The notes below the pieces were generated by a model. That model had not been told where the DNA came from, ran no database searches, and saw only the letters and a list, made by a program, of their open reading frames with translations. 12,830 bases of DNA. Source: a virus. Lineage: Duplodnaviria > Heunggongvirae > Uroviricota > Caudoviricetes. The translations under genes were made by a program, and so were the position numbers. The DNA is taken from positions 1-12,830 of the IMG/VR virus record IMGVR_UViG_2671181030_000005; one strand, given 5' to 3'. Of this stretch, positions 1 to 12,830 are shown piece after piece; positions within the stretch are counted from its first letter, which is position 1, and every line of letters begins with the position of its first letter.

Positions 1-933
1 ATGGACAACGACAAAATTGATCAACACAGCGACGAAATTGAAGTTGAGAGCGAAGAAAAAGAGCGTGGCAAAAAAATAGAAATAGATGAAGATCGACTCC
101 CCTCCCGGGCGATGGCAATTCATGAGCATATCCGCCAGGATGGTGAAAAAGAGCTGGAACGCGACGCAATGGCACTACTGTGGTCAGCCATTGCGGCGGG
201 TCTGTCGATGGGCGCTTCATTACTGGCAAAAGGGATATTTCATGTCGAACTGGAAGGTGTGCCGGGCAGCTTCTTGCTGGAGAATCTCGGTTATACCTTT
301 GGTTTTATTATCGTCATTATGGCCCGCCAGCAATTATTTACCGAAAACACCGTAACTGCGGTACTACCCGTCATGCAAAAACCGACAATGAGCAACGTTG
401 GCTTACTTATGCGGTTATGGGGCGTCGTGCTGCTGGGTAATATTCTCGGGACAGGTATTGCGGCGTGGGCATTTGAATATATGCCAATCTTCAATGAAGA
501 AACTCGCGATGCATTTGTCAAAATCGGCATGGATGTGATGAAGAACACCCCCAGCGAGATGTTTGCCAACGCGATCATTTCCGGCTGGCTGATCGCCACT
601 ATGGTATGGATGTTTCCTGCAGCGGGTGCGGCAAAGATTGTGGTGATTATATTGATGACTTGGCTTATTGCCCTGGGTGACACCACTCACATCGTTGTCG
701 GTTCTGTTGAAATCCTCTATCTGGTGTTTAACGGTACGCTGCACTGGAGCGATTTCATCTGGCCCTTCGCACTACCTACTTTAGCGGGGAACATCTGCGG
801 CGGCACCTTTATCTTCGCGTTAATGAGTCATGCACAGATCCGTAACGACATGAGCAACAAGCGCAAAGCAGAAGCACGCCAAAAAGCAGAACGTGCGGAA
901 AACATTAAGAAAAATGATAAAAACCCGGCATAA
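1..933 (+). CDS. yfdC: Formate/nitrite transporter (FNT) family inner-membrane protein YfdC
   Basis: 310-aa ORF filling the whole interval; multiple hydrophobic segments; sequence recalled as E. coli YfdC, the gene that precedes argW in E. coli. Window begins at its ATG. Confidence 0.9.
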   Translation: MDNDKIDQHSDEIEVESEEKERGKKIEIDEDRLPSRAMAIHEHIRQDGEKELERDAMALLWSAIAAGLSMGASLLAKGIFHVELEGVPGSFLLENLGYTFGFIIVIMARQQLFTENTVTAVLPVMQKPTMSNVGLLMRLWGVVLLGNILGTGIAAWAFEYMPIFNEETRDAFVKIGMDVMKNTPSEMFANAIISGWLIATMVWMFPAAGAAKIVVIILMTWLIALGDTTHIVVGSVEILYLVFNGTLHWSDFIWPFALPTLAGNICGGTFIFALMSHAQIRNDMSNKRKAEARQKAERAENIKKNDKNPA

Positions 934-1008: not shown

Positions 1009-1083
1009 GTCCTCTTAGTTAAATGGATATAACGAGCCCCTCCTAAGGGCTAATTGCAGGTTCGATTCCTGCAGGGGACACCA
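1009..1083 (+). tRNA. argW: tRNA-Arg (anticodon CCU), argW, complete with encoded CCA
   Basis: 75-nt sequence GTCCTCTTAGTTAAATGGATATAACGAGCCCCTCCTAAGGGCTAATTGCAGGTTCGATTCCTGCAGGGGACACCA; cloverleaf with anticodon loop CU-CCU-AA and T-arm GGTTCGATTCC; matches recalled E. coli argW. Confidence 0.95.
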
Positions 1084-1199
1084 TTTATCAGTTCGCTCCC
1101 ATCCGTACCAGTCCGTAAAATCCCCAGAATATCAAGCCTCCCGGAAACTAACAGTTCGTCATGGTTCGCTTCAGATCGTTGACAGCCGCACTCCATGAC

Positions 1200-1245
1200 G
1201 GGTAAAAAGTGGATAAAATAATTTTACCCACCGGATTTTTACCCA
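1200..1245. promoter_or_regulatory. Cluster of GGGTAAAA-type repeats (two direct, two inverted) just upstream of and overlapping the int start; candidate arm-type recombinase or AlpA binding sites
   Basis: gggtaaaaa (1200..1208), ggataaaata (1211..1220), ttttaccca (1222..1230, inverted) and tttttaccca (1236..1245, inverted). The same motif recurs as a tandem pair at 11049..11070 at the other end of the element. Confidence 0.3.
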
Positions 1246-2402
1246 TGCTCACCGTTAAGCAGATTGAAGCAGCAAAGCCGAAAGAAAAACCATACCGCCT
1301 TCTCGATGGTAATGGCCTGTACCTTTATGTTCCTGTATCCGGGAAAAAGGTATGGCAGCTTCGCTACAAGATTGACGGTAAGGAGAAAATCCTGACCGTC
1401 GGAAAATATCCGCTTATGACTTTGCAGGAAGCAAGGGATAAGGCATGGACTGCGAGGAAAGACATCTCGGTTGGCATCGATCCGGTAAAGGCGAAAAAGG
1501 CTTCGTCTAACAACAATTCATTTAGTGCGATTTACAAGGAGTGGTACGAGCACAAGAAGCAAGTCTGGTCAGTAGGCTATGCAACTGAACTTGCCAAAAT
1601 GTTTGATGACGACATTTTACCCATCATCGGCGGCCTTGAAATTCAGGATATTGAGCCGATGCAACTGCTGGAAGTAATCCGCAGATTTGAAGATCGCGGC
1701 GCAATGGAGAGAGCCAACAAAGCCCGCAGAAGATGCGGCGAGGTTTTCCGTTACGCTATTGTTACTGGTAGGGCTAAATATAACCCGGCACCTGACCTTG
1801 CTGACGCCATGAAGGGATACCGCAAGAAGAACTTCCCGTTTCTTCCTGCAGACCAGATCCCGGCATTCAACAAAGCACTGGCAACATTTTCAGGAAGTAT
1901 TGTATCGCTCATTGCGACCAAAGTTTTACGCTACACAGCCCTAAGAACGAAAGAGCTTCGTTCTATGCTATGGAAGAACGTCGATTTTGAAAACAGGATT
2001 ATCACCATCGACGCCAGTGTGATGAAAGGACGCAAAATTCATGTGGTCCCGATGTCAGACCAGGTGGTTGAACTTCTCACTACGTTAAGCTCCATCACCA
2101 AACCAGTATCAGAATTTGTTTTTGCCGGGCGCAACGATAAGAAGAAGCCAATCTGCGAGAACGCGGTGCTACTTGTGATCAAACAAATCGGCTATGAGGG
2201 TCTGGAAAGCGGTCACGGATTCAGACATGAATTCAGCACGATTATGAACGAGCACGAATGGCCTGCTGACGCTATTGAAGTGCAACTGGCACATGCCAAC
2301 GGCGGATCTGTGCGTGGGATTTACAACCATGCTCAGTATCTCGATAAGCGCAGAGAAATGATGCAGTGGTGGGCGGACTGGATTGATGAGAGGGTGGCAT
2401 AG
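1245..2402 (+). CDS. intS: Tyrosine recombinase / phage integrase, P4-IntS type
   Basis: 385 aa from ATG 1245 (MLTVKQIEAAKPKEKPYRLL...); C-terminal catalytic region HGFRHEF ... LAHANGGSVRGIYNHAQY with the terminal Tyr; position directly 3' of a tRNA gene. Recalled as near-identical to E. coli K-12 IntS (CPS-53). The ORF track starts at a GTG at 1209; I prefer the ATG at 1245. Confidence 0.9.
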   Translation: MLTVKQIEAAKPKEKPYRLLDGNGLYLYVPVSGKKVWQLRYKIDGKEKILTVGKYPLMTLQEARDKAWTARKDISVGIDPVKAKKASSNNNSFSAIYKEWYEHKKQVWSVGYATELAKMFDDDILPIIGGLEIQDIEPMQLLEVIRRFEDRGAMERANKARRRCGEVFRYAIVTGRAKYNPAPDLADAMKGYRKKNFPFLPADQIPAFNKALATFSGSIVSLIATKVLRYTALRTKELRSMLWKNVDFENRIITIDASVMKGRKIHVVPMSDQVVELLTTLSSITKPVSEFVFAGRNDKKKPICENAVLLVIKQIGYEGLESGHGFRHEFSTIMNEHEWPADAIEVQLAHANGGSVRGIYNHAQYLDKRREMMQWWADWIDERVA

Positions 2403-5570: not shown

Positions 5571-6018
5571 CAATCAGCAAAGGTACCTTTGCAGAGGTGG
5601 CGCGCTGTTCGACTGTTGAGTCTGTCACCGGGTCACCCGCCCATTGAGCAAAGCGATCATCAACGTAACCGCGGCCTTCAGGTCCTGGCGTATATTCACC
5701 ACGCTTTGCCTTCATAACGTTGCCGGGACCGTCGTGATAAGCCTGAAGAGCGTCACGCCAGTTACCAAACTGCTGGTACATCTTTGCCAGATAGCGCGCG
5801 CCAGCGTCAGCTTGATATTCGGGGTTTTGCATTTGCTCATCGGTATAACCCATATCACGCCATGTCCCAGGCATGACCTGAGTCAATCCTACAGCCCCGG
5901 CGGAGCTTACTGCGGCAGGGTTGTAAGAAGACTCCTTGGCACCCAGTGCAGTCATCAACCCTTCTGGCACACCGTAACGTGCGCCAGCCTGCTCTAACAA
6001 ATCACGGTAATTAGCCAT
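5563..6018 (-). CDS. Lytic transglycosylase (SLT domain) protein, no signal peptide
   Basis: 151 aa; SLT catalytic motif region GAKESSYNPAAVSSAGAVGLTQVMPGTW and downstream AYHDGPG; start ATG follows, in the same frame, the TAA stop of the upstream 381-aa ORF. Confidence 0.8.
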   Translation of the reverse strand: MANYRDLLEQAGARYGVPEGLMTALGAKESSYNPAAVSSAGAVGLTQVMPGTWRDMGYTDEQMQNPEYQADAGARYLAKMYQQFGNWRDALQAYHDGPGNVMKAKRGEYTPGPEGRGYVDDRFAQWAGDPVTDSTVEQRATSAKVPLLIVI

Positions 6019-7164
6019 TTACTGCCCCAAAGATGGAAGATATCCGTAGCGATTAATGAAGTCGATTGACAGCTCGGGGTGCTGCTTCAGGTAATCTATA
6101 GAAGCCTGAGGCGCTTCCACTCGCTTGATACCGTTTTGCTGAACGTACTTACCAACCGCCTCATTACGCTTCTGGTTGAGCGTGTTCAGGATGACGCCAG
6201 CGTTGCGACGAAAGGACTCCTCGCTCTGCGAGTTCTGCAGCGAACCAACAGCCTGGTCGAGCTTTTTGCCCTCGGCATCAGAAAGTGCGCCCATGCCTCG
6301 CATGGCCTGAACCGCTGTCAGGTATGCTTGTGATTTAAAGGTATCAAGTCGTGCCTGAGTGTCTGCAGCCTGTGAGCCTGGAACGTTGGGGATTACTCCA
6401 CGTAAGCCTGTAATGCTCTTAAGTGAAGGAGAACTAACGATATCGTTCAGAGTGAACATGCTGGTTGTGAGGGTGTTGATGCCGTCTTTGTAGCCATCAT
6501 TTAGCGCTTGCTGCTTCTGCTGCAACTGCTGGTTGTTGGCTGCTATGCGGCTCTGTATTTCCTGGCGCTTCAGGTCGTTAGTTTCTGCTGATAGCATCCG
6601 GTCAAGGCGCTTATTTTCGTTGTTAATGCGGTTTGTTTCTGCGTCCAGATTAATGCGCTGCTGACCTAAATTCGCCTGGATATCTTGTCCGCGCATTGTG
6701 ATTGCCTGATTCCGAGCGGCGGTTTGCGAATCCAGATCCTGACCGCGCATGGTAACCTGGCGACCCTGCATTTTATCCTGTAGGTCAAAGTATTTTTCGG
6801 GCCCGAGACTGTTCATCCCCAGGTGATCGACAAATTCGACGAACTGCCGCGGGTTCTGTTGGTACATCTGAGCGACGTCATGAGGATTAACGCCAACACG
6901 AGCTAACTCACCGGCGTTGTTTTGCAGCCATGATTGCATTGCTTCTGGAGACGATGACGCAAGGCGTGCGCCAGCCGCTAAGGTGCCGATAGAATTACGC
7001 TGGTCTTCATCAATGAATCCCATGCCTTTACGAACGGATTCAATCTGGTCTGGATATTGAGTAATCTCGTTAGCAACGCGCATGAAACCATCTTCGGTAT
7101 CTGCCACGCGATGCTCCACGACCTCCAGTTGAGGCCTGTAATCAGCTAACTTAACGACGCCCAT
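6019..7164 (-). CDS. Gln/Asn-rich phage structural protein, candidate ejection (DNA-transfer) protein; function uncertain
   Basis: 381-aa ORF, long uninterrupted; low-complexity coiled-coil-like Q/N-rich middle; lies where P22-like phages place ejection genes, upstream of the immI and tailspike region; directly followed in frame by the SLT ORF. Family assignment is positional inference, not motif-proven. Confidence 0.5.
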   Translation of the reverse strand: MGVVKLADYRPQLEVVEHRVADTEDGFMRVANEITQYPDQIESVRKGMGFIDEDQRNSIGTLAAGARLASSSPEAMQSWLQNNAGELARVGVNPHDVAQMYQQNPRQFVEFVDHLGMNSLGPEKYFDLQDKMQGRQVTMRGQDLDSQTAARNQAITMRGQDIQANLGQQRINLDAETNRINNENKRLDRMLSAETNDLKRQEIQSRIAANNQQLQQKQQALNDGYKDGINTLTTSMFTLNDIVSSPSLKSITGLRGVIPNVPGSQAADTQARLDTFKSQAYLTAVQAMRGMGALSDAEGKKLDQAVGSLQNSQSEESFRRNAGVILNTLNQKRNEAVGKYVQQNGIKRVEAPQASIDYLKQHPELSIDFINRYGYLPSLGQ

Positions 7165-7344: not shown

Positions 7345-7641
7345 TCAGAATTGCATATCAATTTGCTCAGAATCCTCGGTGGCAGCCGGGGATTTTTTCT
7401 TTGTGATTCCATCCAATGCATACTTAAAAGCCCTGCTAATCGGACTGATGTCTGATGCCATTCCGAAAGCACACAAGACCGAAGCAATAAATCTCCAGTC
7501 CGTTCTGCTTATCTTCGATTCATGACAGCCAATCATCTTTGCCAGACCGCGCTGGGTAAGCGTTGACAGGTTGATGAGTAAATCAGTTTCAGCGCGATCA
7601 ATTTCTCGCTGTGTTGGCTTGCTATAACTTGCTTGTGTCAT
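7345..7641 (-). CDS. cII: CII-family transcriptional activator (lambda CII-like)
   Basis: 98 aa; C-terminus TKKKSPAATEDSEQIDMQF resembles recalled lambda CII C-terminus (TNKKRPAATERSEQIQMEF); helix-turn-helix-like core ...GLAKMIGCHESKISR...; located immediately downstream of cro on the same strand, as in lambda. Confidence 0.7.
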   Translation of the reverse strand: MTQASYSKPTQREIDRAETDLLINLSTLTQRGLAKMIGCHESKISRTDWRFIASVLCAFGMASDISPISRAFKYALDGITKKKSPAATEDSEQIDMQF

Positions 7642-8824: not shown

Positions 8825-9166
8825 ATGACACAATTTCAACTTGCATTAATCGCTAGAGAAGTTGATGGAGAAGTCATCCATCTTCGCACCAAAGACGGAT
8901 ACATCAATGCCACCGCGATGTGCAAGTCTGCGGGGAAGCTACTTGCTGACTATACACGACTAAAAACAACACAAGATTTTTTTGATGAATTATCACGCGA
9001 TATGGGGATTCCCATATCGGAGTTAATTCAATCATTTAAAGGCGGAAGAGCAGAGAATCAAGGGACTTGGGTTCATCCAGACATCGCAATTAATTTAGCT
9101 CAGTGGCTATCTCCAAAATTTGCAGTGCAAGTATCGAGATGGGTGCGTGAGTGGATGTCAGGTTAA
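8825..9166 (+). CDS. KilA-N domain protein (N-terminal part of a probably larger ancestral gene)
   Basis: 113 aa; KilA-N/Bro-N-like features (…DGEVIHLRTKDGYINATAMCKSAG…GTWVHPDIAINLAQWLSPKFAVQVSRWV); AGGA 6 nt upstream; sits downstream of cI where lambda has rexAB. Its TAA stop is in frame with the next ORF. Confidence 0.7.
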   Translation: MTQFQLALIAREVDGEVIHLRTKDGYINATAMCKSAGKLLADYTRLKTTQDFFDELSRDMGIPISELIQSFKGGRAENQGTWVHPDIAINLAQWLSPKFAVQVSRWVREWMSG

Positions 9167-9205: not shown

Positions 9206-9584
9206 ATGACAAACCGAGGCAGAGTTCCTCATACGCACTTTTCTATGCTTAATGAACTGACGTTTAACTTGGTTGCGCCACTTGAACAGGCCGGATATAC
9301 GCTGCCAGAAAAAATGGTCCCTGATATTTCAGAGGGTAGGGTTTTCTCGCAATGGCTCCGTGACAACCGGGGGGTTGAGCCGAAGACATTCCCAACATAT
9401 AACCATGAGTACCCAGATGGCCGGACATTCCCGGTACGTCTATACCCAAACGAATATTGCAGATTTCAAACAATACTTCAACGAAGTGTGGCTGCCTCAG
9501 TACGCTCCTAAATATTTTGCTGAACGAGACCAAAGGGCATTGACGTTGATTGAGAAAATCATGCTACCTGACCTTGATTCCTAA
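9206..9584 (+). pseudogene. Disrupted ORF: continuation of the KilA-N gene, carrying an in-frame stop (9164..9166) and a frameshift near 9450..9460
   Basis: ORF 9206..9511 is in the same frame as the KilA-N ORF, separated by a single TAA; a second overlapping ORF in another frame runs to 9584 and ends just before a terminator hairpin. ATG 8825 to stop 9584 is 760 nt (3n+1), which fits one extra base in an ancestral 252-codon gene. No convincing RBS before 9206. Confidence 0.5.
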
Positions 9585-10373: not shown

Positions 10374-10718
10374 ATGTCAGATTTGGCTATGAAGGTTTTG
10401 AAATGGCAATCAACTGGCGATGTCGGCATCAGTAGCGCAACTCTTGCCTCAATCGCATGTGGCCTGAAAAAGAATATCTATGGTCATCACTTCGGCGCTC
10501 CCCATGACGCAGACGATTTCCAACGATGCGTTGCGCTTGTTGAGCAGATTCCAGAAATCAGAGATTCATTCGACAAGGTTGCAAAGCGCGTTCCGGCATT
10601 CAAAGGAATCCTCAACGAATGGGATTCCCTAGTTGCTCTGTTGAAGTCGGAAATGAAGATACACGGAAACAAAGCACCAGAGACTTACAGAAGAATCAGA
10701 GAGCTACGCAAGGACTAA
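10374..10718 (+). CDS. Hypothetical protein, 114 aa, no recognised family
   Basis: GGAG 7 nt upstream of ATG; uninterrupted ORF with ordinary amino-acid composition (MSDLAMKVLKWQSTGDVGISSATLASIACGLKK...); bracketed by terminators on both sides. Confidence 0.6.
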   Translation: MSDLAMKVLKWQSTGDVGISSATLASIACGLKKNIYGHHFGAPHDADDFQRCVALVEQIPEIRDSFDKVAKRVPAFKGILNEWDSLVALLKSEMKIHGNKAPETYRRIRELRKD

Positions 10719-10788
10719 CCATAAAATAACACCGCCTCACACTCGATGATGCCTGTTCATTGCTCAATGATATCCAGACCTACCATCG

Positions 10789-10808
10789 CCGCATCAATGC
10801 GGTTTTTT
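10789..10808 (+). terminator. Rho-independent terminator
   Basis: Stem CCGCA / TGCGG with loop TCAA followed by TTTTTT (to 10808). Confidence 0.55.
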
Positions 10809-10816
10809 ATTGCCTG

Positions 10817-10834
10817 ATTTGCAGGTTCGATTCC
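10817..10834 (+). repeat. Partial direct repeat of the argW T-arm region (16 identical bp, TTGCAGGTTCGATTCC)
   Basis: Matches argW positions 1054..1069 exactly; flanks diverge on both sides. Confidence 0.6.
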
Positions 10835-10853
10835 CTATTCGGAGATAGCACTC

Positions 10854-11054
10854 ATGCAACACGAACTACAGCCTGATTCACTGGTTGATTTGAAATTCAT
10901 CATGGCCGATACTGGCTTCGGTAAAACCTTCATCTATGATCGGATTAAGTCCGGAGACCTTCCAAAAGCCAAAGTTATCCACGGGCGAGCAAGATGGTTA
11001 TATCGTGACCATTGTGAATTCAAAAATAAGCTCTTAAGCCGCGCCAATGGGTAA
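10854..11054 (+). CDS. AlpA-family small DNA-binding protein (excisionase / recombination directionality factor candidate)
   Basis: 66 aa MQHELQPDSLVDLKFIMADTGFGKTFIYDRIKSGDLPKAKVIHGRARWLYRDHCEF...; matches the AlpA/Xis-type HTH pattern; GGAG 9 nt upstream; located at the element end opposite the integrase. Confidence 0.75.
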   Translation: MQHELQPDSLVDLKFIMADTGFGKTFIYDRIKSGDLPKAKVIHGRARWLYRDHCEFKNKLLSRANG

Positions 11055-11070
11055 AATAGCGGGTAAAATA
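11049..11070 (+). repeat. Tandem direct repeat GGGTAAAATA-GC-GGGTAAAATA; candidate arm-type binding sites
   Basis: Two identical 10-mers at 11049..11058 and 11061..11070, overlapping the AlpA-like stop codon; same motif family as the repeats at 1200..1245. Confidence 0.35.
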
Positions 11071-11122
11071 TTTCTCACATCTAAAAAATACCATTCCAAT
11101 CAATCCCCTGCCGCTTCAAGTA

Positions 11123-11140
11123 GATGTCTGCAGGGGACAC
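11123..11140 (+). repeat. Partial direct repeat of the argW 3' end (CTGCAGGGGACAC); candidate attR core of the element
   Basis: 13 identical bp matching argW 1068..1080, with GAT two bases upstream also matching; sequence beyond differs from that following the intact tRNA. Confidence 0.6.
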
Positions 11141-11582
11141 TAGATACCCTTCATACGAAATCTACCTTCACCCCGTAAAAGATGGGTTTGGCAGCACACT
11201 TGCCTTATATCTACTCATTTTTACTGCAACAGGTTGAAATCTCAGCACTGTCAGAAAGCGCTGATGACTAAACAGCCCTGGGCCGGGCGATGTAACCATC
11301 ACACAGAATCCTGATAGCGAAATATGGCGTGACTCGATACTTCACTCCGCAATGCATTCCTTGATGAATTCGCAGGACCGTGATACACGGGACAGGTCGC
11401 TGAATGACGACAATGTCCTGGAAATCAGCGAACCGCGCATCTGAAGTACATTTGAGCGACTGTACCAGAACATGAATGAGGCGTTTGGATTAGGTGATTA
11501 TTAGCAGGGCTAAGCACTTTAGTATTATTATTTTCCGGTTGAGGGATAGGGAGATATCGACAACAACCGGAAAAGTTTACGT

Positions 11583-12830
11583 CTATATTGCTGAAGGTAC
11601 AGGCGTTTCCATAACTATTTGCTCGCGTTTTTTACTCAGGAAGAAAATGCCAAATAGCAACATCAGGCAGACAATACCCGAAATTGCGAAGAAAACTGTC
11701 TGGTAGCCTGCGTGGTCAAAGAGTATCCCAGTCGGCGTTGAAAGCAGCACAATCCCAAGCGAACTGGCAATTTGAAAACCAATCAGAAAGATCGTCGACG
11801 ACAGGCGCTTATCAAAGTTTGCCACGCTGTATTTGAAGACGGATATGACACAAAGTGGAACCTCAATGGCATGTAACAGCTTCACTAATGAAATAATCCA
11901 GGGGTTAACGAACAGCGCGCAGGAAAGGATACGCAACGCCATAATCACAACACCGATAAGTAATGCATTTTTTGGCCCTACCCGATTCACAAAGAAAGGA
12001 ATAATCGCCATGCACAGCGCTTCGAGTACCACCTGGAATGAGTTGAGATAACCATACAGGCGCGTTCCTACATCGTGTGATTCGAATAAACCTGCATAAA
12101 AGACAGGAAAAAGTTGTTGATCAAAAATGTTATAGAAAGACCACGTCCCCACAATAAATATGACGAAAACCCAGAAGTTTCGATCCTTGAAAACTGCGAT
12201 AAAATCCTCTTTTTTTACCCCTCCCGCATCCGCCGCTACGCACTGGTGATCCTTATCTTTAAAACACATGTTGATCATCATAAATACAGCGCCAAATAGC
12301 GAGACCAACCAGAAGTTGATATGGGGACTGATACTAAAAAATATGCCGGCAAAGAACGCGCCAATAGCATAGCCAAAAGATCCCCAGGCGCGCGCTGTTC
12401 CATATTCGAAATGAAAATTTCGCGCCATTTTTTCGGTGAAGCTGTCAAGCAAACCGCATCCCGCCAGATACCCCAGGCCAAAAAAGAGCGCCCCCAGAAT
12501 TAGACCTACAGAAAAATTGCTTTGCAGTAACGGTTCATAAACGTAAATCATAAACGGTCCGGTCAAGACCAGGATGAAACTCATACACCAGATGAGCGGT
12601 TTCTTCAGACCGAGTTTATCCTGAACGATGCCGTAGAACATCATAAATAGAATGCTGGTAAACTGGTTGACCGAATAAAGTGTACCTAATTCCGTCCCTG
12701 TCAACCCTAGATGTCCTTTCAGCCAAATAGCGTATAACGACCACCACAGCGACCAGGAAATAAAAAAGAGAAATGAGTAACTGGATGCAAAACGATAGTA
12801 CGCATTTCTGAATGGAATATTCAGTGCCAT
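11583..12830 (-). CDS. cscB: Sucrose:H+ symporter CscB (LacY-family MFS permease)
   Basis: 415-aa ORF whose ATG is the last three bases of the window; MALNIPFRNAYYRFASSYSFLFFISWSLWWSLYAIWLKGHLG... recalled as CscB of the chromosomal csc sucrose regulon (E. coli W / EC3132 type); 12-TM-like hydrophobic profile. Confidence 0.9.
   Translation of the reverse strand: MALNIPFRNAYYRFASSYSFLFFISWSLWWSLYAIWLKGHLGLTGTELGTLYSVNQFTSILFMMFYGIVQDKLGLKKPLIWCMSFILVLTGPFMIYVYEPLLQSNFSVGLILGALFFGLGYLAGCGLLDSFTEKMARNFHFEYGTARAWGSFGYAIGAFFAGIFFSISPHINFWLVSLFGAVFMMINMCFKDKDHQCVAADAGGVKKEDFIAVFKDRNFWVFVIFIVGTWSFYNIFDQQLFPVFYAGLFESHDVGTRLYGYLNSFQVVLEALCMAIIPFFVNRVGPKNALLIGVVIMALRILSCALFVNPWIISLVKLLHAIEVPLCVISVFKYSVANFDKRLSSTIFLIGFQIASSLGIVLLSTPTGILFDHAGYQTVFFAISGIVCLMLLFGIFFLSKKREQIVMETPVPSAI

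Follow-up and report, generated by a model that had tools for sequence, protein, structure and literature searches.

A copy of the argW T arm upstream of torI belongs to the phage genome and is not a product of prophage integration

The DNA analyzed here (the window, 12,830 nucleotides in full) contains, just ahead of torI, a 16-nt repeat of the argW T arm, which is a fixed component of a phage genome and not a product of integration. The segment spanning 10788-11142 is likely the right end of a degraded, ~10-kb prophage of the HK620/Sf6/KplE1 type (P22-like) in argW, with the T-arm copy as a phage-borne box. The new point concerns conservation: xCAGGTTCGATTCC is the sole invariant non-coding block 5' of TorI-type genes whose products are as little as 36% identical. 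This pattern suggests that selection maintains the box as linear sequence and that it probably serves as a DNA site bound by a protein.

Results

The window contains the two ends of a prophage integrated in argW

Features are collected in Table 1. Across 10788-11142, their order is terminator, torI leader, torI (excisionase), attR P arm, and attR core. In the window, int adjoins attL and the gene for the recombination directionality factor (RDF) adjoins attR; in the phage, the RDF gene and int flank attP, in agreement with the HK620 and Sf6 annotations. This arrangement has been published for the KplE1/HK620/Sf6 module (PMC2951348, PMC3509656, PMC8787464), and a preliminary description of the window, which had placed an excisionase-like gene at the end opposite the integrase, matches it. 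The same description had called that gene AlpA-like; its product is indeed an excisionase, and its specific identity is torI, with 66/66 residues matching the "Tor inhibition protein" of PDB 1z4h (E = 6.6e-43) and 100% identity to HK620 HkaC and Sf6 gp18 (tblastn). The integrase is 97-99.5% identical to those of Sf6, IME10, Kapi1, and VT2phi_272, and its next relatives beyond the HK620/Sf6 type are at most 38% identical. The attL P' arm region is ~93% identical to the right half of HK620 attP, and an attP rebuilt from the left part of the window's attR and the right part of its attL is the same as HK620 attP.

Table 1. Features of the argW prophage ends in the window
Feature	Position	Strand	Basis
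argW, tRNA-Arg(CCU)	1009..1083	+	ARAGORN; Rfam tRNA 63.4 bits
argW T arm (the argW 3' end forms attL)	1056-1072
attL core CTGCAGGGGACACCAT	1069..1084	+	16/16 vs 16-nt KplE1 core quoted in PMC2951348
attL P' arm and intS promoter	1085..1244	+	sequence read against PMC2951348 motifs
Five TorI-type motifs, predicted	GTTCG 1091, GTCCG 1111, GTTCG 1154, GTTCG 1164, GATCG 1174		within 1085-1244
-35 TTGACA of intS promoter	1179-1184	+	sequence
TAAA-containing IntS arm-type repeats GGGTAAAA or GGATAAAA, predicted	1200-1244	+	motifs of PMC2951348
intS-type integrase, 385 aa, P4-like, arm-DNA-binding domain	1245..2402	+	Pfam Phage_integrase, Phage_int_M, Arm-DNA-bind_3
Intrinsic-terminator-like hairpin and T run, at the end of the early-left genes, immediately 5' of the torI leader	10788..10809	+	terminator scan
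TTGC-N5-TTGC, off-consensus	10810..10822	+	HK620: cII binding site; Sf6: pI promoter region (GenBank features)
T-arm copy, 16-mer	10819..10834	+	identical to argW 1054-1069
Family-conserved part of T-arm copy, CAGGTTCGATTCC(C)	10822-10835	+	kept in 10 lineages
torI Shine-Dalgarno GGAG, inside conserved CGGAGATA	10841..10844	+	sequence, alignment
torI, recombination directionality factor (excisionase), 66 aa	10854..11054	+	PDB 1z4h match; RefSeq torI
attR P arm and core	11031..11142	+	in vitro attR substrate of PMC3509656 begins at 11031
Two IntS arm-type repeats GGGTAAAAT, predicted	11049-11057 and 11061-11069	+
C-type core half-site AGTAGATGTC, predicted	11119-11128	+	compared across 19 lineages
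attR core copy CTGCAGGGGACACTA, prophage right boundary	11128..11142	+	14/15 vs core; unoccupied argW-cscB junctions
Chromosomal argW-cscB spacer, outside prophage	11143..11582	.	same sequence directly after argW in element-free strains (L001)

Integration was an IntS-mediated exchange of the phage attP core with the argW 3' end. The exchange left attL with a phage-supplied tRNA 3' end and intS, and attR with torI and the original tRNA end, which is the 13-mer CTGCAGGGGACAC. This 13-mer matches argW 1069-1081 exactly, and the copy reaches 11142 with a single C-to-T mismatch at 11141 relative to argW (...ACACCA), a substitution that may have a bearing on excision competence. In strains without the element, argW reads CTGCAGGGGACACCA followed by GATACCCTTCA directly into the same cscB-side flank. 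In the empty-junction comparison that the preliminary description had called for, homology between these unoccupied argW-cscB sites and the window resumes exactly at 11128, and in other lysogens at least five different flanks lie immediately past the core. As that description had proposed, the 13-mer is a genuine att repeat; it corresponds to the known attR core and forms the element's right boundary. The argW locus has been recognized as a hypervariable hotspot for integration (PMC8787464, PMC3032704). In some strains, a fragment of a DUF4942 gene is annotated by RefSeq in the argW-cscB interval.

Relation to known phages and prophages

KplE1 (CPS-53) of E. coli K-12 shares with the window its argW target, 16-nt attL core, identical TorI, torI at attR and intS at attL, attL TorI motifs, intS promoter, and arm-type repeats at the torI stop codon; it also has the 16-mer 5' of torI (L002 1585-1600). 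The two differ in cargo (tailspike, ejection-protein fragment, cI/cro/cII region, and early-left genes in the window; gtr and yfd genes in KplE1), in right flank (cscB versus dsdC), in the attR core substitution at 11141, and in the terminator hairpin 5' of torI, which is intact in the window and degenerate in K-12. HK620 and Sf6 (Lederbergvirus) are ~97% identical to the window over 10788-11140 at the nucleotide level in their hkaC/gene 18-attP-int regions and share with it the 16-mer, torI, arm sites, and core. Their genomes are intact and circularly permuted with an uninterrupted attP, whereas the window holds an integrated, deleted form. The xis-int region of lambda and HK97 resembles the window in having a terminator and then a TTGC repeat just 5' of the RDF gene. 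The window is 84-95% identical to HK97, HK022, and mEp506 up to ~10816, where the similarity ends, and the counterpart of its hairpin is annotated as a terminator in HK97. However, lambda and HK97 have TTGC-N6-TTGC, adjacent xis and int, and attP downstream of int, whereas the window has N5 spacing, with a tRNA T-arm copy following the repeat, and attP between the RDF gene and int. A different module, at argU, is found in epsilon34.

Among tRNA 3'-end duplications associated with P4-type integrases, the 13/15-nt acceptor-end repeat of the window is a classical case in which attP supplies the replacement tRNA 3' end. In contrast, the T-arm copy lies away from the element border and apart from the exchange site, and integration did not generate it.

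The T-arm copy is carried by free phages

The 16-mer TTGCAGGTTCGATTCC matches argW exactly from the end of the variable region, through the 5' T-stem strand and the T loop, to 2 nt into the 3' T-stem strand. It lies 19 nt 5' of the torI start codon; the core starts 73 nt beyond the end of torI. Both tRNA-identical strings reported in the preliminary description are present (10819-10834 and 11128-11140) and, as it stated, joining them yields argW 1054-1081. The copies abut but are not strictly nonoverlapping as claimed, since in tRNA coordinates they overlap by one base (C1069). Among 3000 mononucleotide-shuffled versions of the window, 1 had a tRNA match of at least 16 nt and 54 had a match of at least 13 nt; the analytic expectations are 3.6e-4 and 0.024, respectively. 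When one mismatch was allowed, GGTTCGATTCC had sites at argW and 10824 only; ARAGORN and Rfam detected argW as the sole tRNA and no partial tRNA at 10819. Inspection by eye revealed no significant further tRNA homology 5' of 10819 or left of the E. coli core past GAT.

The free phages HK620 (L004 2033-2048) and Sf6 both contain the 16-mer at the same place. Because the 16-mer, torI, and core are contiguous in these free genomes, the T-arm copy is phage DNA carried in with the prophage and not a host scar. The three also occur as one block in 1402/5426 E. coli genomes, and a chimeric query detected argW fused directly to torI in 0/5426. A first survey of viral contigs with a TorI query returned only 100%-identical copies and is informative on polymorphism, not divergence.

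xCAGGTTCGATTCC precedes the TorI-type genes of phages and prophages that target argW in Escherichia, Salmonella, Serratia, Citrobacter, Pantoea, Edwardsiella, and Erwinia. In an alignment of 10 box-bearing lineages, whose RDF proteins diverge to 36% identity, the only invariant non-coding columns were GTTCGATT and C, with CAG and another C nearly invariant. The distance from box to start codon was 16-19 nt in 9 of the 10, and sequence 5' of the box was unrelated between lineages. The 3' end of the box varied: CC was followed by C in most lineages, and CCTG was found in Serratia and Pantoea, where the box continues as ...GATTCCTG. Identity to the tRNA extended over 15-18 nt in four lineages (TT.CAGGTTCGATTCC[TG]), and Midgardsormr38 carries the box in two tandem copies. 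IMG/VR occurrences of GTTCGATTCCC-N3-6-GGAG other than those in tRNA genes lie ahead of TorI-type RDFs from at least three subfamilies. The box was absent in about half of the lineages (Klebsiella Chronis, Erwinia 49, Dryocola, Tatumella, Rouxiella, Arsenophonus, and three Pantoea) and is therefore dispensable for the module.

Every TorI-type module found, box-bearing ones included, targets tRNA-Arg(CCU). An RDF relative in Leclercia by tRNA-Arg(UCU) (L114) and a Hyphomicrobiaceae match (L115) had another layout and no box, and no analogous element was detected in the integrase relatives of Pseudomonas VW-6S, Stenotrophomonas S1, Acinetobacter 5W, and Klebsiella Kp4865-2. The last of these has just an ordinary ssrA attL. 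An RNA-level T-arm mimic or leader structure was considered and rejected: depending on lineage, 1-4 of 5 T-stem pairs are possible (2/5 in the E. coli-type box), RNAalifold on the 10 lineages gave 0 pairs, and Rfam gave nothing at 10819 up to an E-value of 1. Neither a description of the box nor binding, expression, or recombination data on it appeared in the papers examined.

A T-loop remnant already adjoins the attP core

A degenerate, in-register T-loop remnant, separate from the box, lies beside the attP core, with the consensus TTCGATGT followed by A or C. TTCGAT stands at positions -9 to -4 left of the core, its successive bases being found in 16, 18, 10, 19, 16, and 15 of 19 lineages, respectively, and positions -3/-2 are GT in 19/19 attP/attR sites and never the TC of the tRNA. 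We read this remnant as the predicted C-type core half-site of the phage. The box has the tRNA version, ...TTCGATTCC, whereas the phage C site reads ...TTCGATGT(A/C) or GTAGATGTC; the box equals the predicted attB left half-site (..GATTCC) and is distinct from the phage C version (..GATGTC). In the layout predicted for the strand-exchange region, a B or C half-site is followed by TGCAGGG and then by GACACC. On this layout, each tRNA-identical block would end close to the left side of the probable strand-exchange region, which would explain why the two abut without any 290-bp insertion. Since a T-loop remnant already stands left of the core, the upstream copy is a second copy and not a missing half.

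Discussion

Possible functions of the box

The box has remained invariant while RDF sites, arm-type sites, and the C site have drifted. Tentatively, we prefer a mechanism suggested by this sequence pattern in which the core-binding domain of IntS would recognize the box, and IntS occupancy would thereby be coupled to torI and read-through int expression. Held more tentatively still is the broader proposal that the box is a functional copy of the attB left half-site placed in a phage regulatory region, where binding by the integrase (or, less likely, by a host factor that recognizes the T loop) would tie excisionase and read-through int expression to integrase occupancy. On this broader proposal, the box would stay identical to the tRNA since the target specificity of the integrase is fixed, while the other protein-binding sites of the module drift. 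Most likely, the box derives from a formerly longer argW T-arm copy that was captured long ago: the 15- to 18-nt identity in four lineages is more than a core half-site requires and favors tRNA ancestry over a site shaped purely by function. The box is not needed for excision, because the published in vitro attR substrate begins at primer CTCTTAAGCCGCGCCAATGG, corresponding to window 11031-11050 (PMC3509656).

Two other regulatory readings are each unlikely, to a similar degree. In one, the TTGC repeats at 10810-10822 would bind a cII-like activator of a pI-type promoter and the T-arm identity would be an incidental spacer; a transcript starting near the torI ATG, without the torI ribosome-binding site, would express int for lysogenization. 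GenBank features agree with this reading ("cII protein" and "promoter, phage integration" in HK620; "pI" in Sf6), HK97 has a canonical TTGC-N6-TTGC at the homologous place just 5' of xis with a mosaic joint inside, and the window encodes a cII-like protein (7345-7641). However, the spacing here is N5, and the only canonical N6 site in the window (7619-7632) lies inside the 5' end of the cII-like gene, where lambda has its PRE site. The first TTGC is polymorphic (TTGC or TTAC), being TTAC in K-12 and many prophages, and the second is TTCC or missing in other box-bearing lineages. A consensus scan found no sigma-70-like promoter in 10600-11300, and the invariance of GTTCGATTCC in phages with unrelated regulators would go unexplained. 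The torI promoter has been described as not yet characterized (PMC2951348). A pI-type promoter here is compatible with the best explanation.

The other regulatory reading is that TorI binds the box through a GTTCG motif and autoregulates torI. TorI is known to repress the intS promoter. The box contains GTTCG, a published TorI-site motif, so that TorI may bind it in E. coli-type modules, and its aGGTTCGAt resembles site I4 (tGGTTCGCt); TorI sites on attL have been mutated at GTTCG, GATCG, and GTCCG (PMC2951348). Against this stands phiEt88, whose RDF is 36% identical to TorI in the alignment (38.7% by tblastn): the P' arm repeats at its I1-I5 positions are CCGATGTAA, CTGCGTTAC, and CCGGCGTAA, which lack GTTCG, yet its box (AGGTTCGATTCCC) is unchanged. 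Moreover, known TorI sites act in closely spaced arrays, in contrast to the solitary box, and the invariance of the box covers ATTCC, which TorI sites do not have.

Less probable again is that the box has no present function and is a long-captured piece of argW marking the left edge of a mosaic torI-attP-int module. Annotation of the stretch in Sf6 as boundary sequence bsq2, the unrelated upstream sequences together with the end of HK97/HK022 similarity at ~10816, and the lineages without the box are all in keeping with such a relic, and the long tRNA identity in four lineages favors descent from a tRNA copy. Neutrality is nevertheless hard to reconcile with 10-13 consecutive invariant bases in 10 lineages, amid randomized non-coding neighbors and RDFs diverged to 36% identity, or with the start-codon distance held at 16-19 nt. 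Should the box prove inert, the locus would be an unremarkable case of a module that is already well studied.

The preliminary description had offered two histories in which the tRNA-identical blocks are remnants of attachment sites. The first, that a contiguous tRNA 3' third (TTGCAGGTTCGATTCCTGCAGGGGACACCA) was part of an ancestral attP or attR into which a ~290-bp torI block was inserted between ...GATTCC and TGCAGG, we regard as very improbable. It would account for blocks on the same strand and in the same order that abut with a 1-nt overlap, and the 16-nt identity is far beyond chance. However, the in-register T-loop remnant lies directly left of the core in the 19 lineages compared, so that nothing is missing there; the Serratia and Pantoea box extends 2 nt beyond the supposed split point; Midgardsormr38 has tandem copies; and the upstream copy is missing from several lineages that do have torI and the core, one of which, Dryocola, looks like a clean box deletion. 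Such an insertion would also detach the core half-site from the exchange region and inactivate the site, and the lack of argW-torI fusions in the E. coli genomes further opposes it. A deep ancestral rearrangement is conceivable, but nothing requires it. The second history, in which two elements integrated in succession at argW in this chromosome and left a T-arm scar and an acceptor-end scar, can draw on the hotspot status of argW and the DUF4942 fragment but is scarcely credible, given that free phage genomes have the 16-mer at the same distance from torI and attP, that the attP reconstructed from the window ends is that of HK620, and that integrations with T-loop and acceptor cores would not set a T-arm block against non-tRNA sequence 5' of torI.

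Implications

For annotation, the right boundary of the argW prophage remnant is set at 11128-11142 and the "AlpA-like" gene is torI; a tRNA-like fragment near the end of an island is not necessarily an att scar. Expression of torI is the excision switch in this module, and the box is a candidate part of torI control: a 10- to 13-nt element of the torI leader, identical to the T loop of the target tRNA and conserved across genera. If the proposal of integrase binding is true, the box would be a target-site mimic serving as a regulatory operator in a temperate phage.

The two argW-like blocks bracket torI in a KplE1-type module

Both argW-like strings described in the preliminary account were present as exact matches: positions 10819 to 10834 (TTGCAGGTTCGATTCC, here called the box) are identical to argW 1054 to 1069, and positions 11128 to 11140 (CTGCAGGGGACAC) to argW 1069 to 1081, with one base common to both blocks in tRNA coordinates. 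The acceptor-end block extends to 11142 with a single C-to-T difference at 11141. In shuffled sequence, tRNA matches of at least 16 nt and at least 13 nt arose in 1/3,000 and 54/3,000 cases, respectively. The 11-mer GGTTCGATTCC, allowing up to one mismatch, occurred only in argW and at 10824, and no partial tRNA was called at 10819 by any tool used.

The gene between the blocks, labelled "AlpA-like" in the preliminary description, is torI: all 66 residues match the solved TorI structure (1z4h), the gene is annotated torI in RefSeq genomes, and its product is identical to HK620 HkaC and Sf6 gp18. TorI is the recombination directionality factor (RDF) of KplE1 (CPS-53), HK620, Sf6, and other argW-integrating phages, in which a duplicated core (CTGCAGGGGACACCAT) forms the module edges, with intS at attL and torI at attR (PMC2951348, PMC3509656, PMC8787464). 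The complete 16-nt core is present in the window and is followed on its 3' side by the published attL features of a KplE1-type module (PMC2951348; motif comparison): five GTTCG/GTCCG/GATCG TorI motifs, the intS promoter -35 element TTGACA, and TAAA-containing arm-type repeats. Joining the left part of the window attR to the right part of attL rebuilt HK620 attP. The locus, in a hypervariable argW region that adjoins the csc regulon (PMC3032704), represents a new example of this well-known recombination module, with its own pattern of degradation.

Features of the argW-cscB region
Feature	Position	Strand	Remarks
yfdC	1-933		
argW	1009-1083		tRNA-Arg(CCU)
attL core	1069-1084		
Prophage remnant	between argW and cscB		~10 kb
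Integrase	1245-2402		P4-like, with arm-binding domain; first gene of remnant
Middle of remnant			P22-type tailspike, ejection-protein fragment, cII-, cro-, and cI-like genes, early-left genes
Fusion ORF	6019-7164	-	381 aa
cII-like gene	7345-7641	-	
TTGC-N6-TTGC	7619-7632	+	Sole canonical site in window; inside 5' end of cII-like gene, facing cI-like gene
KilA-N domain ORF	8825-9166	+	
BstA-matching ORF	9206-9511	+	Matches C-terminal part of BstA abortive-infection protein; separate, after KilA-N ORF
Box	10819-10834		
torI	10854-11054		66 aa; last gene of remnant
43-aa ORF	11047-11178	+	Overlaps torI stop codon, spans att core
attR core	11128-11142		
Chromosomal spacer with DUF4942 fragment	11143-11582		
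cscB	11583-12830	-	

Within the remnant, residues 34 to 375 of the fusion ORF match the P22 gp16-type ejection protein and its first ~35 residues match replication-initiator O-like families; this ORF looks like a deletion joint at which the prophage lost its replication, lysis, and head genes. The KilA-N and BstA-matching ORFs are probably a single BstA-like defense gene broken by a frameshift. The 43-aa ORF is the counterpart of hkaB (HK620) and gene 17 (Sf6); since its C terminus varies with the flank after the core, it is unlikely to be a genuine gene.

The element ends at the attR core

In element-free strains, argW reads ...CTGCAGGGGACACCA|GATACCCTTCA... and then continues with the same sequence as the window from 11143 (L001, an unoccupied argW-cscB strain). 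In many E. coli genomes the match begins only at 11128, with a tRNA-Arg annotated beneath it, and other lysogens carry at least five different flanks after the core. The unoccupied-site match and the varied lysogen flanks therefore place the end of the element at 11128 to 11142. The comparison proposed in the preliminary description thus confirmed a boundary beyond which lies chromosome, not island. A fragment annotated in RefSeq as "DUF4942 domain-containing protein" lies between argW and cscB in many strains, prophage-free ones among them, and may be the remnant of an older island at the argW hotspot. None of the ~30 other attR sequences compared showed the change at 11141 (ACACTA instead of ACACCA), which falls within the predicted right half-site and might impair excision.

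The box is a second copy carried by the phage

The blocks had been interpreted either as an attR split by the torI segment or as nested scars. The split was not supported when 19 attP/attR sites (Escherichia, Salmonella, Klebsiella, Erwinia, Serratia, Citrobacter, Pantoea, Edwardsiella, and others) were compared over the 15 nt to the left of the core. TTCGAT, in T-loop register, occupies positions -9 to -4 (in 16, 18, 10, 19, 16, and 15 of the 19 sites, respectively), and every one of the 19 has GT at -3 and -2 (TC in the tRNA). Given this in-register sequence, attP has a degenerate T-loop remnant of its own adjoining the core (consensus TTCGATGT-A/C). Moreover, the upstream copy in Serratia and Pantoea runs on as ...GATTCCTG, 2 nt beyond the supposed split point. 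We infer that the attP remnant would be the phage C-type core half-site, with an inverted partner GACACC across the 7-bp TGCAGGG. Midgardsormr38 (L006 2486-2514) carries two boxes in tandem, repeating every 16 bp (cAGGTTCGATTCCcgt cAGGTTCGATTCCcac), immediately ahead of the RDF ribosome-binding site. A published in vitro attR substrate begins at window position 11031 (PMC3509656), so the upstream copy is dispensable for excision in vitro.

Scars of successive integrations in this chromosome are ruled out, because the same 16-mer occurs in the free phage genomes HK620 and Sf6 (19 nt before the torI start and 293 nt before the attP core), in K-12 KplE1, and as a single block with torI and the core in 1,402 of 5,426 complete E. 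coli genomes; argW was fused directly to torI in none of the 5,426.

The box is conserved upstream of TorI-type genes

The motif xCAGGTTCGATTCC sits 16 to 19 nt (25 in Serratia) upstream of TorI-type start codons in E. coli types, Salmonella g341c/Emek, Erwinia phiEt88 and Midgardsormr38, and Serratia, Citrobacter (with a 1-nt insertion), Pantoea, and Edwardsiella prophages. Across 10 aligned lineages, no noncoding columns other than GTTCGATT and a C were invariant; CAG and another C were nearly so, bases flanking the box were unrelated, and RDF proteins were as low as 36% identical. When IMG/VR was scanned for GTTCGATTCCC-N3-6-GGAG, the ORFs that followed non-tRNA hits encoded TorI-type RDFs, with at least three subfamilies represented. 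argW was the target of every TorI-type module found. The box is missing in about half of the lineages, and no analogue was detected in the more distant integrase relatives examined. Three lineages read TTCCAGGTTCGATTCC, a 15/16 match to the tRNA, so the ancestral copy probably spanned more of the argW T arm.

Dryocola sp. BD626 (L100 ~5960-6000) has the terminator and TTGCCTG joined straight to the RDF ribosome-binding site, as if the box of the E. coli arrangement had been cleanly deleted. Two metagenome-assembled genomes labelled Actinomycetes (L097) and Parachlamydiaceae (L112) carry an enterobacterial-type torI module with box and argW core, for which mis-binning or contamination is the likeliest explanation. 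In Stenotrophomonas phage S1 (L237 1840-2435), a "putative repressor" gene upstream of a P4-like integrase has TorI/AlpA-like sequence (…GLGKTTIYDRISAGTFP…), so an RDF-attP-int layout is probable there also.

Possible role of the box

In E. coli types the box is a possible TorI operator, as it contains the TorI motif GTTCG (PMC2951348); however, the phiEt88 box is unchanged, yet the repeats at the RDF-site positions of this phage lack GTTCG. HK620 and Sf6 annotations place a cII site and the pI promoter in the torI leader, which we consider doubtful. The repeat there is TTGC-N5-TTGC rather than the canonical N6, and its second tetrad is missing in other lineages. The first (10810-10813; homologous positions in loci L009-L088) is polymorphic in E. 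coli prophages, reading TTGC, TTAC, or rarely CTTGC, even in ~40-kb, intact-looking prophage contigs. Moreover, the sole canonical site of the window lies elsewhere, inside the 5' end of the cII-like gene, which is where lambda has its PRE site. RNA structure at the box found no support.

We tentatively favor, at low confidence, a putative copy of the attB left half-site that would be recognized by the integrase IntS, because the box has kept the tRNA version of the half-site while RDF sites, arm sites, and the C site drifted. If true, this would explain why both tRNA-identical blocks terminate close to the left boundary of the exchange region. To a known module, the conserved T-loop box adds a modest new detail that can be tested.
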